Virus record (IMG/VR): IMGVR_UViG_2778261391_000004
From: a virus
Taxonomy: Duplodnaviria > Heunggongvirae > Uroviricota > Caudoviricetes
Reading direction: 5' to 3' (one strand)
DNA: 6,391 nucleotides
The position numbers and the translations under genes are program-made. Below, one piece after another: positions 1-6,391 of this stretch; the first letter of the stretch is position 1, and every line of letters begins with the position of its first letter. The notes under the pieces were generated by a model. The model had not been told where the DNA came from and made no database searches. It worked only from the letters and a program-made list of their open reading frames with translations.

Positions 1-1038
1 AGTAAAACCGTTCAGCTTAATCACGGCTGGAACGATGAGGCATTTAATCCAAAGGATGCGCAGCGTTATCTCTGCCGCATCTGGAGCCTGATGCGCACGG
101 CATTCAAGGATAATGATTTACAGGTCTACGGTTTGCGTGTCGTCGAGCCACACCACGACGGAACGCCGCACTGGCATATGATGCTTTTTTGTAATCCACG
201 CCAGCGTAACCAGATTATTGAAATCATGCGTCGTTATGCGCTCAAAGAGGATGGCGACGAAAGAGGAGCCGCGCGAAACCGTTTTCAGGCAAAACACCTT
301 AACCGGGGCGGTGCTGCGGGATATATCGCGAAATACATCTCAAAAAATATCGACGGCTATGCACTGGATGGTCAGCTCGATAACGATACCGGCAGACCGC
401 TGAAAGACACTGCTGCGGCTGTTACCGCATGGGCGTCAACGTGGCGTATCCCGCAATTTAAAACGGTTGGCCTGCCGACAATGGGGGCTTACCGTGAACT
501 ACGCAAACTGCCTCGCGGCGTCAGCATTGCTGATGAGTTTGACGAACGCGTCGAGGCTGCACGCGCCGCCGCAGACAGTGGTGATTTTGCGTTGTATATC
601 AGCGCGCAGGGTGGGGCAAATGTCCCGCGCGATTGTCAGACTGTCAGGGTTGCCCGTAGCCCGTCGGATGACGTTAACGAGTACGAGGAAGAAGTCGAGA
701 GAGTGGTCGGCATTTACGCACCGCATCTCGGCGCGCGTCATATTCATATCACCAGAACCACGGACTGGCGCATTGTGCCGAAAGTGCCGGTCGTTGAGCC
801 TTTGACTTTAAAAAGCGGCATCGCCGCGCCTCGGAGTCCTGTCAATAACTGTGGAAAGCTCACCGGTGGTGATACTTCGTCACCGGCTCCCACGCCTTCT
901 GAACACGCCGCAGCAGTGCTTAATCTGGTTGATGACGGTGTTATCGAATGGAGTGACCCAGAGGTCGTCAGAGTGTTTAGAAACACATTAAAGCATTATT
1001 TGCCAATGTTTACTCGGCAAGAGAAGATAAGTGGCTAG
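1..1038 (+). CDS. A: Replication initiation endonuclease gpA (rolling-circle HUH nickase), C-terminal part; 5' end lies outside the window
   Basis: Frame 1 is open from base 1 (SKTVQLNHGWNDEAF...) to the TAG at 1036..1038. It contains an HUH motif (PHWHMM, 169..177) and a YIAKY double-tyrosine motif (322..336) like the catalytic tyrosines of phiX174/P2 A proteins. Codon usage is GC-rich like the phage backbone. Confidence 0.9.
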   Translation, partial: SKTVQLNHGWNDEAFNPKDAQRYLCRIWSLMRTAFKDNDLQVYGLRVVEPHHDGTPHWHMMLFCNPRQRNQIIEIMRRYALKEDGDERGAARNRFQAKHLNRGGAAGYIAKYISKNIDGYALDGQLDNDTGRPLKDTAAAVTAWASTWRIPQFKTVGLPTMGAYRELRKLPRGVSIADEFDERVEAARAAADSGDFALYISAQGGANVPRDCQTVRVARSPSDDVNEYEEEVERVVGIYAPHLGARHIHITRTTDWRIVPKVPVVEPLTLKSGIAAPRSPVNNCGKLTGGDTSSPAPTPSEHAAAVLNLVDDGVIEWSDPEVVRVFRNTLKHYLPMFTRQEKISG

Positions 1039-1252
1039 CTGATATAATTGCATAGGATTACATTGTTCGTTTGGATGGTCGGAGCTTGGAGAGAGTAACT
1101 GTCGTTCACTTGCTTTGAGTTTTTCAAAATGACCATCAGCAGCAAATTGGGAACTTCAGGGGGCTGGAGCGTGGCTATTAATCATCCGAAAAATCACTTT
1201 CTCACATTAAGGGATTGTTAGTTTGATTCAACTTTTAAAGCAACTATGGCTT

Positions 1253-1280
1253 TAGACAATGACTGATGTCATGATAGAAT
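1253..1280 (+). promoter_or_regulatory. Candidate sigma70 promoter for the methyltransferase gene
   Basis: -35-like TAGACA (1253..1258), 16-bp spacer, extended -10 TGaTAGAAT (1272..1280), about 40 bp upstream of the ATG at 1321. Sequence-only prediction. Confidence 0.3.
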
Positions 1281-1320
1281 ACATGATCGTTAGTTGAATC
1301 TTTAGCATGGTTATTTGAAT

Positions 1321-2472
1321 ATGAATGTAGTTGATTTATTCTCTGGAGTTGGCGGTTTAAGCTTAGGGGCAACTCGAGCCGGTTTCAACTTGGTTGGAGC
1401 TGTTGAACTGGATAAACATGCTATTTTTTCACATGAGTTAAACTTCCCAAAATCAACACATTTGCATCGGGATGTCTGCTCGCTTACAGCAAAAGATATT
1501 TTGTCTGCATGTGCTGTAAAGGACATTGATTGCGTTATTGGTGGTCCACCTTGCCAAGGATTTAGCACCATTGGAAAAAGGAATGCCAATGATACAAGAA
1601 ATGAATTGTATATTCATTTTTTTAGGTTGGTAAGTGAGTTATCTCCAATTTGTTTTTTGGCAGAGAATGTTCCAGGAATTATGGGTGAGAAATATAATCC
1701 AGTAAGAGAAGAAGCATTTTCTTTAGTTAGAGATGGCTATTGTTTATTACATCCAATAAGGGTTAATGCTTCAAATTATGGAGCACCTACGACACGGACA
1801 CGAATATTTTTCATGGGTTTTAAAAGAGGTTTTATTAATCAGTTAAAAGAATCTGATTTTTTTCCTAAAAATATAATAGAGCAGACTCTTGTCAAAGATG
1901 CACTCTACGGATTACCGCGAACTATAAGAAAAGAGTGGCAGACAGAGGAGCAAGGCTGGCGTTCAGTAAAAATGGATAAAGATGGTTACTATTATGAGCG
2001 ACTTTGGGGACATATACCAAATGGTGTAGGTGATGCAGAATCCATTCAAAATTTAAAGAAAGGATTGGTATCTGGCTTTTTAGGTACAGCTCATTCGGAG
2101 GAAGTGCTCAGGAGATATAGACAACTTTCATTCGGTGAAACTGATAAGATTTCGAGATCACAACGACTCAATCCTAACGGTTTTTGTCCAACTTTGAGAG
2201 CAGGTACAGGAAGTGACAAGGGGAGTTATCAGGCCGTTAGGCCAATTCACCCTACTCAAGCTAGGGTGATAACTCCTCGTGAAGCAGCTAGGTTACAAGG
2301 GTTTCCTGATTGGTTCCGTTTTCATCCTACAAAGTGGCACAGTTTTAGACAGATAGGTAATAGCGTTAGTCCGCTTGTGGCTGAGGCTATGCTATTACCT
2401 TTATACGATTACTGTTTAAAAGTTAAAAAAGAATCTTTGAATACCATGGAACGACCTTGTAGTATTCGATAA
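1321..2472 (+). CDS. DNA (cytosine-5)-methyltransferase (Dcm-like C5-MTase)
   Basis: Long ORF with C5-MTase motifs in canonical order: motif I FSGVGG (1339..1356), motif IV GGPPCQGFS with the catalytic Cys codon at 1552..1554, motif VI ENVPG, and motif X QIGNSVSP near the C-terminus. The ORF track starts at TTG 1315; ATG 1321 is the more likely start. AT-rich codon usage. Confidence 0.9.
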   Translation: MNVVDLFSGVGGLSLGATRAGFNLVGAVELDKHAIFSHELNFPKSTHLHRDVCSLTAKDILSACAVKDIDCVIGGPPCQGFSTIGKRNANDTRNELYIHFFRLVSELSPICFLAENVPGIMGEKYNPVREEAFSLVRDGYCLLHPIRVNASNYGAPTTRTRIFFMGFKRGFINQLKESDFFPKNIIEQTLVKDALYGLPRTIRKEWQTEEQGWRSVKMDKDGYYYERLWGHIPNGVGDAESIQNLKKGLVSGFLGTAHSEEVLRRYRQLSFGETDKISRSQRLNPNGFCPTLRAGTGSDKGSYQAVRPIHPTQARVITPREAARLQGFPDWFRFHPTKWHSFRQIGNSVSPLVAEAMLLPLYDYCLKVKKESLNTMERPCSIR

Positions 2473-3415
2473 AATTACTTAGATCGGAGTTGGCTCCAGA
2501 AGGAGTGGAGCCAATGTAAAACCCTAGAGTTTCATGGATGTTTTCTACTGAAGCTTCGGGTAATAAAGATTCAATATGTATCCTTTCTTTTAAAGACATA
2601 GCAGGGACGTTTATATTTTTAGGATTACTCCACTTCCCATCATAAAATGGCCAATTCTTGATTCTGGAATTATCAATAAATTTAGCTTCTTCTGTATCAG
2701 TGTTTTCAAGAACGATAGCTGTTAAAGTAACCATCTGTTGGCCATCTTTATAAACGAAAGAAGTTAATGGATGTATTCTTATGTCATTTCGACCTTTTAA
2801 TCCATGCCCTATTGCGCGTCTCATAGCATTAACTAGGAGCATAGGGTATTTTTTAAATCCGACATCTTCGACTACTGCATTCGGTGGTAAAAAATCTTGA
2901 GTCAAAATATCGTTTATCTTTTGAAATCTATATGCTCTTGGATCTCGTTCGCTCGGGTTTTTTCCCAAGGCTTCAGGGTTTGCATTTAAAGTGATCTTAA
3001 AAATGTCTTTGGGTTTTAGCTTTGTAACCAAATTAACTATTTCATTTAACTGAGCATTTAAGTCTGAAGGCGTTGCATAATCTAACCATATGATCGTTTT
3101 ATCGTCAAAGTTATAGCGATTGATGAAGTCTCCGCTCATTTCTGGGGTATCACCCAAATTTATGCAAGATAATGGTTTGTTAAACTGTTGTCGGCAATGG
3201 ACATTTTTATCTCCTTCGATAGATATCATTTTAGTCACTTTTAACAAATTATGAATTTGTTTGAAATCTTCGAGGAAAGGCCCCCCGAATCCTATATATA
3301 CATATTCGGATATGTTTGTATAATTGTTTAACCTTCTTAGGGATTCTATAAATAGATTCCTTTCAATGGCTTTGTTTTGCCGCAAATGATATGGGATGCT
3401 TCCGCCAGTACTCAT
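2423..3415 (-). CDS. Hypothetical protein (330 aa), second gene of the GHKL-ATPase operon; candidate effector or partner of unknown fold
   Basis: Uninterrupted 330-codon ORF whose ATG (3415..3413) overlaps the TGA of the upstream ATPase gene (ATGA coupling), with an AAGG Shine-Dalgarno-like element upstream. It has the same AT-rich composition as its neighbours. It contains a glycine-rich YVYIGFGGPF segment followed by acidic strand-end residues (ISIEGD, IIWLDY), reminiscent of a Rossmann-like fold, but function cannot be assigned by eye. Confidence 0.6.
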   Translation of the reverse strand: MSTGGSIPYHLRQNKAIERNLFIESLRRLNNYTNISEYVYIGFGGPFLEDFKQIHNLLKVTKMISIEGDKNVHCRQQFNKPLSCINLGDTPEMSGDFINRYNFDDKTIIWLDYATPSDLNAQLNEIVNLVTKLKPKDIFKITLNANPEALGKNPSERDPRAYRFQKINDILTQDFLPPNAVVEDVGFKKYPMLLVNAMRRAIGHGLKGRNDIRIHPLTSFVYKDGQQMVTLTAIVLENTDTEEAKFIDNSRIKNWPFYDGKWSNPKNINVPAMSLKERIHIESLLPEASVENIHETLGFYIGSTPSGANSDLSNFIEYYKVVPWYSKILF

Positions 3416-4836
3416 TGTTTAGCCTTTTTTAGAAATTCATCAAAACAATATTGACCAACCTCTGTTGGTGGTTGAGTTGCATCATCAAAGAGAAACTCTG
3501 ACACCAGTTTTATTTCACTATGTCTACGGCTAAATTTTATCTGACGTAATGGATCCGAATCCCGAGGCATTGGTAGCTTCGGTTTGAAAACTTCTCCTCC
3601 TATTGAACGTCGAACGTTCGACCAGTTTTCTCTAGGAATTGATTTAGTAAAGTCGACCTCAGTTGTTGAAACCATATTGGATGCAGTATTAATAATTTGC
3701 TTTCTTTCCTCTGCGTTACTTTTCCATTTGTTGGTAAAGTCCGTGAAGAATTTTAAACCCTCGCGCATAAAATCTTTAGTAGAAAGATATAGCTCAGAGT
3801 TACCATCAACACCTCGTTTAGTTGTAGTGATAGGTAGTAATTCAGCATTTGATGATGTGAAAATAACAACACCAGAAATTCCGATGAATTGAGTATGATA
3901 TTGTGGAACTCCAGCTTCTCCCCAACCTGTAAGCTTGGTTTTATCCGCATGTAGGACTACACGATCATTGCATATAATTGTCCAACCAGCTTTTTCTGTT
4001 GTGGAACGGCCTGATAATAAATTCTCTTCTTCTTCCTCACTAGGCAAGTTACGATAAAATCCAACTGCAACTTTAATTGAAACTCCATTTGAATTATTTT
4101 TATATACATAAGGAGCAATGCCGTCGGTATTGCCTTTAATGGCTTCTTCATCAAATATTAAATTGGTGCTATTTGGCTTAACAATACATCCATTTACTTT
4201 AACCTCAAACCCTTTTTTAATGATTAAACTATAATGATTTGCTATGATATTAATCAAAACTTCTTCAAAGCCACGATCCTTTGATAGGGATGCTTTAATA
4301 TCTTTCCTTAAATTGTTAATTTGGATGCTGACGCCTGTTTCGTTTAAGTCAACATTATTTCGCTCTAACTCCAAAGACCAGTTTTCATCATCAGCCATCC
4401 ATTCAGGAGAAATGGTAACTGAAAATTGTTCGTTTTCAGTTTTGCTTAAAATCTGAGCAGATGTCCCCATTTTGAAAATCGCTCGTTTCATTCCGATACC
4501 ATATACACCAATTGTCGGGAGATCATCCGCCTCACGTTCTGCAGGTCTACCCAACCTAAACGCATAGCTTTCCGCAAGTTTTGCTGGAATACCTCCGCAA
4601 TTATCAGTTATTCTGAAACTATTCTCATCAAATTCAATATGAGCATAGTAACCCTTGTAAACGTCTGATTTACCGAAGGTTTGCTCTGGAGTGAAATTGT
4701 TTTTTCTTAATACACCATCTAGGCAGTTATCTAGTAAATCTAGAATTGAGTCAGACAACTCAATATCTCGGGTGAGCATCTCAACAAAGAATCTTTTTGC
4801 TGGAAATGCTGCTATTTTGACGTTTGACGAAACCAT
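3412..4836 (-). CDS. GHKL-superfamily ATPase, MORC/HATPase_c_3-like (474 aa)
   Basis: Bergerat-fold motifs in canonical order in the N-terminal 120 residues: N-box DLLDNCLDG (4717..4740), G1 box DNCGG (4591..4605), G2 box GVYGIGMK (4486..4509). AAGGA Shine-Dalgarno 6 nt upstream of the ATG at 4836. Long ORF with AT-rich codon usage. Confidence 0.8.
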   Translation of the reverse strand: MVSSNVKIAAFPAKRFFVEMLTRDIELSDSILDLLDNCLDGVLRKNNFTPEQTFGKSDVYKGYYAHIEFDENSFRITDNCGGIPAKLAESYAFRLGRPAEREADDLPTIGVYGIGMKRAIFKMGTSAQILSKTENEQFSVTISPEWMADDENWSLELERNNVDLNETGVSIQINNLRKDIKASLSKDRGFEEVLINIIANHYSLIIKKGFEVKVNGCIVKPNSTNLIFDEEAIKGNTDGIAPYVYKNNSNGVSIKVAVGFYRNLPSEEEEENLLSGRSTTEKAGWTIICNDRVVLHADKTKLTGWGEAGVPQYHTQFIGISGVVIFTSSNAELLPITTTKRGVDGNSELYLSTKDFMREGLKFFTDFTNKWKSNAEERKQIINTASNMVSTTEVDFTKSIPRENWSNVRRSIGGEVFKPKLPMPRDSDPLRQIKFSRRHSEIKLVSEFLFDDATQPPTEVGQYCFDEFLKKAKQ

Positions 4837-4859
4837 AAATTATCCTTTTTCGAACAGTA

Positions 4860-4889
4860 ATTTTCGCATTCATGCATAATGGCTGTGAA
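4860..4889 (-). promoter_or_regulatory. Candidate sigma70 promoter for the ATPase/330-aa operon
   Basis: On the minus strand: -35-like TTCACA (4889..4884), 18-bp spacer, -10-like GAAAAT (4865..4860), about 25 nt upstream of the ATG at 4836. Weak match, sequence-only. Confidence 0.25.
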
Positions 4890-5034
4890 CGAAGATTCGT
4901 CTTGATTAGGCGTGCATGATTTTGCATACAAAATGTATGAAAAAAAAAGCTGCCTGTCTATGACTGATAGCCGTCTAGTTACTTGGTTTTCAAGACAAAT
5001 GCGACTGCATCAAAACCGTCTCATGAAGCGGGCG

Positions 5035-5053
5035 GGCGAGGCGGGGAAAGCAC
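5035..5053. other. cos site: 19-nt cohesive-end sequence of P2-type phages (terminase cleavage site)
   Basis: Exact occurrence of GGCGAGGCGGGGAAAGCAC, which I recall as the P2/186 cohesive end, in the expected place between the cargo region and gene Q. Confidence 0.75.
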
Positions 5054-5086
5054 TGCGCGCTGGCGGTGGTGCTGATTTTATTTTTT

Positions 5087-5123
5087 CAGCGTCTCAGCGT
5101 CTCAGCGTCTCAGCGTCTCAGCG
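5087..5123. repeat. Tandem direct repeat (CAGCGTCT)x4 plus partial copy CAGCG, 34 bp downstream of cos
   Basis: Read directly from the sequence: cagcgtct cagcgtct cagcgtct cagcgtct cagcg. Confidence 0.85.
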
Positions 5124-5219
5124 CGTCGTGACGGCGTTTGGATTGTGCGCCGGGGCGTTGGTGTGTCTGCGGGGTGTTTTGTGCGGTGGTGAGCGTGTGA
5201 GGGCGTGATGACGGGGTGT

Positions 5220-5241
5220 CAAAAAGCCGCCCGCAGGCGGC
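5220..5241 (-). terminator. Rho-independent terminator downstream of portal gene Q
   Basis: On the minus strand: 6-bp GC stem GCCGCC / GGCGGC with a 4-nt loop (5226..5241) followed by TTTTT (complement of 5221..5225), starting 5 nt after the Q stop codon. Confidence 0.65.
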
Positions 5242-5246
5242 GTTGT

Positions 5247-6281
5247 TCAGTCGTTGTCAGTGTCCAGTGAGTAGTTTTTAAAGCGGATGACCTCCTGACC
5301 GAGCCAGCCGTTTATCTCGCGGATCCTGTCCTGTAACGGGATAAGCTCATTGCGGACAAAGACCTTTGCCACTTTCTCAATATCACCCAGCGACCCGACG
5401 TTCTCCGGCTTGCCGCCCATCAACTGAAAGGGGATGCGGTGCGCGTCCAGCAGGTCTGCGGCGCTGGCTTTTTTGATATTAAAAAAATCGTCCTTCGTCG
5501 CCACTTCACTGAGCGGGATAATTTTAATGCCGTCGGCTTTCCCCTGCGGGGCATAGAGAAACAGATTTTTAAAGTTATTGCGGCCTTTCGACTTAACCAT
5601 GTTTTCGCGAAGCATTTCGATATCGTTGCGATCCTGCACGGCATCGGTGACGTACATGATGTATCCGGCATGTGCGCCATTTTCGTAATACTTGCGGCGG
5701 AACAGCGTGGCCGACTCATTCAGCCAGGCAGAGTTAAGGGCGCTGAGATATTCCGGCAGGCCGTACAGCTCCTGATTAATATCCGGCTCCAGCAGGTGAA
5801 ACACGGAACCGGGCGCGAAGGCTGTCGGCTCGTTGAAGGACGGCACCCACCAGTAAACATCCTCTTCCACACCACGGCGGGTATATTTTGCCGGTGAGGT
5901 TTCCAGTCTGATGACTTTACCGGTAGTGCTGTAACGCTTTTCCAGAAACGCATTACCGAACACCAGAAAATCCAGCACAAAGCGGCTGAAATCCTGCTGG
6001 GAAAGCCACGGATGCGGGATAAATGTCGAGGCCAGAATATTGCGTTTGACGTAAATCGGCGAGCTGTGATGCACGGCAGCACGCAGGCTTTTCGCCAGAC
6101 CGGTAAAGCTGACCGGCGGCTCATACCATCTGCCGTTACTGATGCACTCGACGTAATCCAGAATGTCACGGCGGTCGAGTACCGGCACCGGCTCACCAAA
6201 GGTGAATGCCTCCATTTTCGGGGCGCTGGCGGTCATTTTTTTTGCCGCAGGTTGCGGTGTTTTCCCTTTTTTCTTGCTCAT
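5247..6281 (-). CDS. Q: Portal protein gpQ (capsid portal vertex protein)
   Basis: 344-aa ORF (MSKKKGKTPQPAAKK...DTDND) that I recognise as the P2 Q protein. GC-rich backbone composition, followed by a terminator and positioned next to cos as in P2. Confidence 0.95.
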   Translation of the reverse strand: MSKKKGKTPQPAAKKMTASAPKMEAFTFGEPVPVLDRRDILDYVECISNGRWYEPPVSFTGLAKSLRAAVHHSSPIYVKRNILASTFIPHPWLSQQDFSRFVLDFLVFGNAFLEKRYSTTGKVIRLETSPAKYTRRGVEEDVYWWVPSFNEPTAFAPGSVFHLLEPDINQELYGLPEYLSALNSAWLNESATLFRRKYYENGAHAGYIMYVTDAVQDRNDIEMLRENMVKSKGRNNFKNLFLYAPQGKADGIKIIPLSEVATKDDFFNIKKASAADLLDAHRIPFQLMGGKPENVGSLGDIEKVAKVFVRNELIPLQDRIREINGWLGQEVIRFKNYSLDTDND

Positions 6282-6391
6282 CAGTAAAACTCCAGAATGG
6301 TGGATGTCAGCGGGGTGCTGATACCGGCGGTGAGTGGCTCATTTAACAGGGCGTGCATGGTCGCCCAGGCGAGGTCGGCGTGGCTGGCTTC
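6281..6391 (-). CDS. P: Terminase large (ATPase) subunit gpP, C-terminal 36 codons; 5' end lies outside the window
   Basis: The minus-strand frame is open from the window edge (EASHADLAWATMHALLNEPLTAGISTPLTSTILEFY) to the TGA at 6283..6281, which overlaps the Q start codon by one base (TGATG). The position matches the P2 P-Q arrangement. Identity rests on synteny and an open frame only. Confidence 0.6.
   Translation of the reverse strand, partial: EASHADLAWATMHALLNEPLTAGISTPLTSTILEFY

Follow-up and report, generated by a model that had tools for sequence, protein, structure and literature searches.

The question raised by this locus is whether a short GC-rich sequence that lies next to a block of candidate defence genes is the cohesive-end site (cos) of a P2-like prophage and, if so, whether the adjacent genes could travel in virions. 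The window, i.e., the entire 6,391-nt stretch of DNA analysed here (IMG/VR virus record IMGVR_UViG_2778261391_000004, Caudoviricetes), contains the 19-mer GGCGAGGCGGGGAAAGCAC at positions 5035-5053 on the plus strand. This sequence is identical, at 19 of 19 positions, to the 19-nt cohesive end (cosN) of phages P2 and P4: bases 1-19 of the P2 genome (AF063097 / NC_001895), which carry the annotation "cosL; left cohesive end", have this sequence, and P4 also begins with these 19 bases. It is the single match in the window when both strands are searched with up to three mismatches allowed. The alternative explanation, that the 19-mer is a chance or otherwise unrelated GC-rich match and there is no cos site here, can be discarded: 200 dinucleotide-preserving shuffles of the sequence yield no match at all, and P2 homology flanks the 19-mer on both sides, with a 36-bp stretch homologous to the P2 right end on one side and about 1.4 kb that is 96-97% identical to the P2 left end on the other. 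The earlier note on this DNA had described the cohesive-end sequence as intact and proposed an alignment to the P2 and 186 genome termini; such an alignment bears the description out, the 19-mer being identical to the P2 end, whereas 2 of the 19 cohesive-end bases differ in coliphage 186 (NC_001317).

The ends of deposited phage genomes provide an indication of the position of the cut. A megablast search with window positions 4880-5400 against 50,697 phage records, in which window position 5035 corresponds to query position 156, identifies at least 15 linear records (P2, Wphi, fiAA91-ss, P24A7b, HQ103, and others) that align with their terminal base at this position; in each of these it is base 1 of the record, except for one reversed record of which the last base, rather than the first, falls on 5035. 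At the level of sequence, the 19-mer is confirmed as a genuine, intact P2-type cos of a P2-like prophage of Escherichia coli, a real but ordinary feature.

The sequences around the cohesive end are also relevant to its function. According to passages in three papers that cite Ziermann & Calendar 1990 (PMC5694545, PMC9594776, PMC2231350), P2 and P4 share a 55-bp core around the cohesive end. Our own alignment of the P2 and P4 ends delineates the same 55-bp core, in which the 19-mer is preceded by 29 nt and followed by 7 nt. The corresponding segment of the window, 5006-5060 (plus strand), is identical to the P2 core at 51 of the 55 positions. All four substitutions (5011 T>C, 5019 C>T, 5021 C>T, and 5023 G>A) map to the distal part of the left arm. 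The 19-mer, the 11 nt that adjoin the cut on the left (TGAAGCGGGCG) and the 7 nt on the other side are unchanged with respect to P2. Among 22 comparator sequences (P2, P4, 186, eight other phage records, and eleven prophages or UViGs), A at 5023 is common and 5019 is occupied by C or A, whereas C at 5011 and T at 5021 are absent, position 5011 being T in all 22, including 186 and P4. In IMG/VR, two pattern scans reveal at least 25 UViGs with C at 5011, which represent no fewer than seven distinct left-arm backgrounds, and 146 sampled sites include at least 5 with T at 5019, at least 10 with T at 5021, and at least 131 with A at 5023, counts that represent occurrences, not frequencies. The A at 5023 is found in many isolated phages as well. 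The exact 67-bp cos variant of the window is present in 62 of 5,426 complete E. coli genomes. Prophage left arms vary widely beyond about 11 nt from the cut, and no record in the phage collection contains the exact left arm of the window, the best match being 95.8% identical over 71 nt. Because each of the variant bases recurs in other P2-like elements, we judge all four core differences to lie within the natural polymorphism of P2-like cos sites and the site to be intact as far as can be told from its sequence.

The cos of phage 186 resembles that of the window in its architecture and proximal core motif; it also has A at the equivalent of 5023 and a base other than C at the equivalent of 5019, as does the window (5023 A, 5019 T), but differs at several flank positions. 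The window cos clearly belongs to the P2/P4 type rather than to the 186 type. Covariation within a putative hairpin in the left arm (CCCG..CGGG in P2, CCCA..TGGG in 186) was considered and rejected given that most isolated phages have CCCA..CGGG, which implies an A-C mismatch. A search of Rfam returned no matches.

Further evidence comes from gene order. In the window, the cargo island follows the replication gene A and is itself followed by cos, a tQ-type terminator, and genes Q and P, the same order as in P2, where cos spans bases 1-19, tQ 160-181, Q 187-1221, and P 1221-2993. The intrinsic terminator of the P-Q operon (5226-5241, minus strand) is a GC-rich hairpin followed by a T-run and is assigned to the tQ type by comparison with the P2 annotation. 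Gene Q (5247-6281, minus strand) encodes a portal protein of 344 aa (Pfam Phage_portal; TIGR01540, E-value 1.2e-74) and shows 97% DNA identity to its P2 counterpart. Gene P, which encodes the large terminase subunit, is represented by its last 36 codons and the stop codon (6281-6391, minus strand; stop at 6281-6283), recognised from the P2 layout. This fragment is the entire terminase gene content of the window, with gpM and most of gpP encoded outside it; two near-identical prophages, that of E. coli AR_0067 and a second one, L022, have the complete P and M genes. The assertion that cos is correctly placed relative to Q and P agrees with this arrangement, in which the tQ-type terminator, Q and the 3' end of P are ordered as in P2. 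As in P2 and P4, the site lies between a right-end accessory operon and tQ-Q-P, and the distance from the cut to the first accessory gene is about 195-200 bp in both P2 and the window.

To the left of cos lies the cargo island (969-4998), which is delimited by the loss of homology to other P2-like phages and by a drop in GC content (approximately 0.33-0.45 compared to 0.50-0.59 in the backbone). Homology to other P2-like phages is lost at about 968-995; its point of return is 4999-5006 in most copies and 5024 in one. The cargo-specific DNA is separated from the cut by 36 bp and from the cos core by 7 bp, so the characterisation of cos as directly abutting the cargo island is accurate.

The island encodes three proteins. 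The first is a C-5 cytosine DNA methyltransferase of 385 aa (1315-2472, plus strand; Pfam DNA_methylase, 1.7e-59; TIGR00675 dcm, 2.5e-51; PADLOC MTase_II, 5e-100). The second is a 330-aa protein of the PF20553 family (Methyltransf_35, "putative O-methyltransferase"; 2423-3415, minus strand; Pfam, 4.6e-85), for which searches of PADLOC, NCBIfam and PDB gave no match and a literature search gave nothing usable. The methylase and PF20553 genes are convergent and overlap by 50 nt at their 3' ends. The third protein is a GHKL-type ATPase (HATPase_c_3) of 474 aa (3412-4836, minus strand; Pfam, 2.6e-08), the product of the first gene of the leftward cargo operon; it has no match in PADLOC, NCBIfam or PDB and is 25% identical (E-value 2e-5) to a protein of phage PhiR44_1 annotated as "ParaMORC3". 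The leader and promoter region of this operon (4837-5005, minus strand) contains promoter-like sites at 4960-4932 and 4889-4860, detected by a consensus scan, and is the equivalent of the old-tin promoter region of P2, where the transcript starts about 150 bp from cos. The start codon of the ATPase gene (4836) is 198 bp from the cut, compared to 194 bp between old and cos in P2. The window carries a different cargo where P2 carries old and tin.

With respect to the function of these genes, a restriction-modification module of the paraMORC type would combine a GHKL+S5 ATPase with a DNA methylase and a nuclease, and operons that combine GHKL and Dcm genes have been predicted to encode restriction-modification systems (Iyer, Abhiman & Aravind 2008, PMC2292703). 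The cargo shares with the MORC/paraMORC operons a GHKL (HATPase_c_3) ATPase next to a C5 cytosine methylase but differs from them in the presence of the PF20553 partner, in the lack of a recognisable nuclease domain, and in the low identity (the 25% mentioned above) to a single annotated ParaMORC3. The methylase is the only cargo protein with a PADLOC match. A role of the methylase, the PF20553 protein and the GHKL ATPase in defence, which the earlier note took for granted, is a plausible, domain-based guess, and the three genes can be regarded as a candidate restriction-modification-like or other defence system.

The layout of cos and cargo is already known. Rousset et al. 2022 (PMC9122126) described a cos-adjacent hotspot of variable cargo between gpA and gpQ in P2-like phages, and their Table S5 lists the exact three-gene cargo of the window, outside the set of systems that were assayed for anti-phage activity. 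For 186-type cos, replacement of the adjacent cargo, involving retrons, is attributed to Dodd & Egan 1996 in a passage of PMC5694545. In the window, a non-homologous variable block lies between gpA and cos/gpQ, as is characteristic of the hotspot, and ten prophages with the same Q have ten different sets of cargo genes. A difference from the published hotspot is that the variable block here extends into the gpA reading frame of the P2 type, by about 290 nt.

Taken together, these observations are best compatible with the interpretation, to which we assign a probability of roughly 0.85, that the window contains the cos of a P2-like (Peduovirus) temperate phage, in the joined form found in a prophage or a circular genome, at the known gpA-gpQ cargo hotspot, and that the element would be packaged in the fashion of P2. 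Identity of the 19-mer, the near-identical core, the gene order and the cargo boundaries are the evidence from which we infer cleavage, packaging and spread; in addition, complete head, terminase and tail genes are present in the near-identical prophages. Homology to P2 suggests that the core of about 55 bp would be bound, on the closed circular phage genome, by the terminase (gpP with gpM), which would introduce the nicks expected for cosN, in the top strand 5' of position 5035 and in the bottom strand after position 5053. The product would be a linear genome with 19-nt 5' overhangs. Its left end would start at 5035 and continue into tQ, Q, P and the rest of the backbone, whereas the right end would consist of the cargo operon, with the ATPase gene starting about 200 bp from the terminus, similarly to old in P2. 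The phage map is fixed in this way, with the virion genome predicted to begin, on the left, at 5035 and to end, on the right, with the cargo, and the placement of the cargo at the extreme right end of the virion DNA, as proposed earlier, fits the region where P2 carries old and tin. A literature search on the direction of P2 packaging gave nothing usable.

The further claim that this prophage keeps a packaging site holds in part. The unchanged 19-mer and the recognisable 55-bp core speak for it; however, an intact 19-mer is no proof of a working packaging site because the flanks matter: longer cos flanks raised cosmid transduction about 10^4-fold (PMC9594776). The right flank of the window is unusual. 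At 5086-5123, an 8-bp unit is perfectly repeated in tandem (TCAGCGTC x 4.8), with four full copies and a partial one; this rare 24-bp expansion lies 33 bp to the right of the cut. In P2, as in all the other copies of the cargo, there is a single full unit and a partial one. The gap between cos and Q is 193 nt compared to 167 nt in P2, and 24 nt of the excess is due to the repeat expansion, which also accounts for a 24-nt alignment gap between the window and 46 near-identical E. coli prophages. Among the 146 UViGs sampled, 118 contain a single repeat unit, the remaining 28 giving no match to the pattern applied; three units were found in two IMG/VR contigs in a separate scan (L019 and L020). 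A four-copy repeat was seen neither in the other cargo copies nor in the sampled UViGs that matched the pattern or the IMG/VR sequences covered by the separate scan; likewise, none of the ten loci that encode the exact Q protein of the window has it.

This restriction of the four-copy repeat to the window, the T at position 5011 shared by all 22 sequences first compared, 186 and P4 among them, and the magnitude of the flank-length effect on cosmid transduction would be compatible with a cos of reduced function, owing to the substitutions in the left arm (5011, 5019, 5021), to the 24-bp expansion that alters the spacing of the right flank, or to both. We consider such weakening improbable: each of the three bases (5011 C, 5019 T and 5021 T) is found again in other P2-like elements, against several left-arm backgrounds, and prophages differ greatly from one another in the part of the left arm that lies more than 11 nt away from the cut. 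Furthermore, P2 and P4 show no similarity beyond 7 bp to the right of the cohesive end, and P4 is nevertheless packaged by the P2 terminase (PMC9122126), so that the region farther to the right appears to be under no strict sequence requirement. The repeat expansion may have a quantitative effect on packaging.

P2/P4-type packaging starts from covalently closed circles that are cleaved at cos (PMC2231350), and spread of the cargo would therefore require excision and replication in addition to cos. In this regard, the replication gene A deserves attention. Its 3' part occupies positions 1-1038 (plus strand; Pfam Phage_GPA, 1.6e-39). As indicated by blastn and blastp comparisons, homology of gpA to P2 ends at about 968, i.e., at a point 77 aa short of the end of P2 gpA, and is followed by a divergent tail of 23 aa and an early stop codon; in identical copies, the whole protein is 687 aa long, compared to 761 aa in P2. 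The context of the P2 ori nick site (808-857, plus strand) is preserved, with 50 bp identical to P2, and the P2 nick at 29892 corresponds to window position 833.

The shortened gpA raises the possibility that cos is intact while the prophage is replication-defective or cryptic, so that the site would be a silent relic, used at most with the assistance of a co-resident P2-like helper, and the cargo would be passed on chiefly by vertical inheritance. The loss of the last 77 aa that are present in gpA of P2 and PhiR44_1 is compatible with this possibility, as is the annotation of the gene by NCBI (PGAP) as a pseudogene in near-identical prophages ("incomplete; missing C-terminus" in AR_0067). Among the cargo variants examined, the shortening is unique to this cargo: in all nine prophages that have the same Q and another cargo, gpA consists of 755-763 aa. 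On the other hand, gpA of phage 186 is 694 aa long and has a C-terminal tail unrelated to that of P2, which implies that a tail of the P2 type is not found in all such proteins; the sequence around the ori nick is preserved; and, gpA aside, the genes of AR_0067 and L022 all appear to be complete. These two prophages adjoin yegR/yegS and carry int, the repressor gene, cox, A, Q, P, O, N, M, and the lysis and tail genes. The function of the shortened gpA, as it can be judged from its sequence, is uncertain.

Comparison of the copies of this locus bears on the same problem. The full locus is near-identical in 46 E. coli genomes, many of which come from human clinical isolates, and vertical inheritance in related lineages is possible; no record in the phage collection represents an isolated phage with this cargo, which also is compatible with a cryptic element. 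However, the identical cargo block is found on at least 3-4 different backbones. Specifically, window positions 904-5127 show no mismatches, repeat copy number aside, to AR_0067 (L007), L022 and two further copies (L032 and L033), whereas the flanking gpA and cos-Q-P regions contain 40-63 sites that differ, in a mosaic pattern, from the same four copies. Thus, positions 904-5127 appear to represent one young haplotype of cargo and cos on several P2-like backbones, a pattern that fits recent recombination among P2-like phages; alternatively, it could have originated by replacement of the flanks in a resident prophage. With these facts on both sides, we regard a cryptic prophage as possible though rather unlikely, and favour the interpretation of the locus as a P2-like prophage that would be packaged at its own cos. 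Encapsidation and spread of the cargo can then be reasonably inferred, with the caveat of the shortened gpA. A more far-reaching scenario, which we find doubtful, is that the cargo, the shortened end of gpA and the cos core (904-5127) move as one young cassette across at least 3-4 backbones, with the packaging site included in the exchanged unit, and that the private left arm and the rare four-copy repeat could tune the efficiency or specificity of packaging.

Given that the cargo resides in the cos-proximal hotspot, any mobility of the methylase/PF20553/GHKL module can be expected to follow P2-type packaging. Beyond annotation, the significance of this cos is small; the shortened gpA and the function of the three-gene cargo are of greater interest.

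Two minor observations concern cos itself. In the deposited sequences of phage D8 (L013), 12474III (L015) and pro483 (L017), the G-run of the 19-mer is lengthened or shortened by one base, or the 19-mer reads GGGGATAGCAC; these deviations could be either real variants or homopolymer sequencing errors. An ORF of 98 aa with a GTG start that extends across cos (4912-5208, plus strand) has no family match and is treated as probably spurious; shorter versions of it are annotated as "hypothetical protein" in several phage records.
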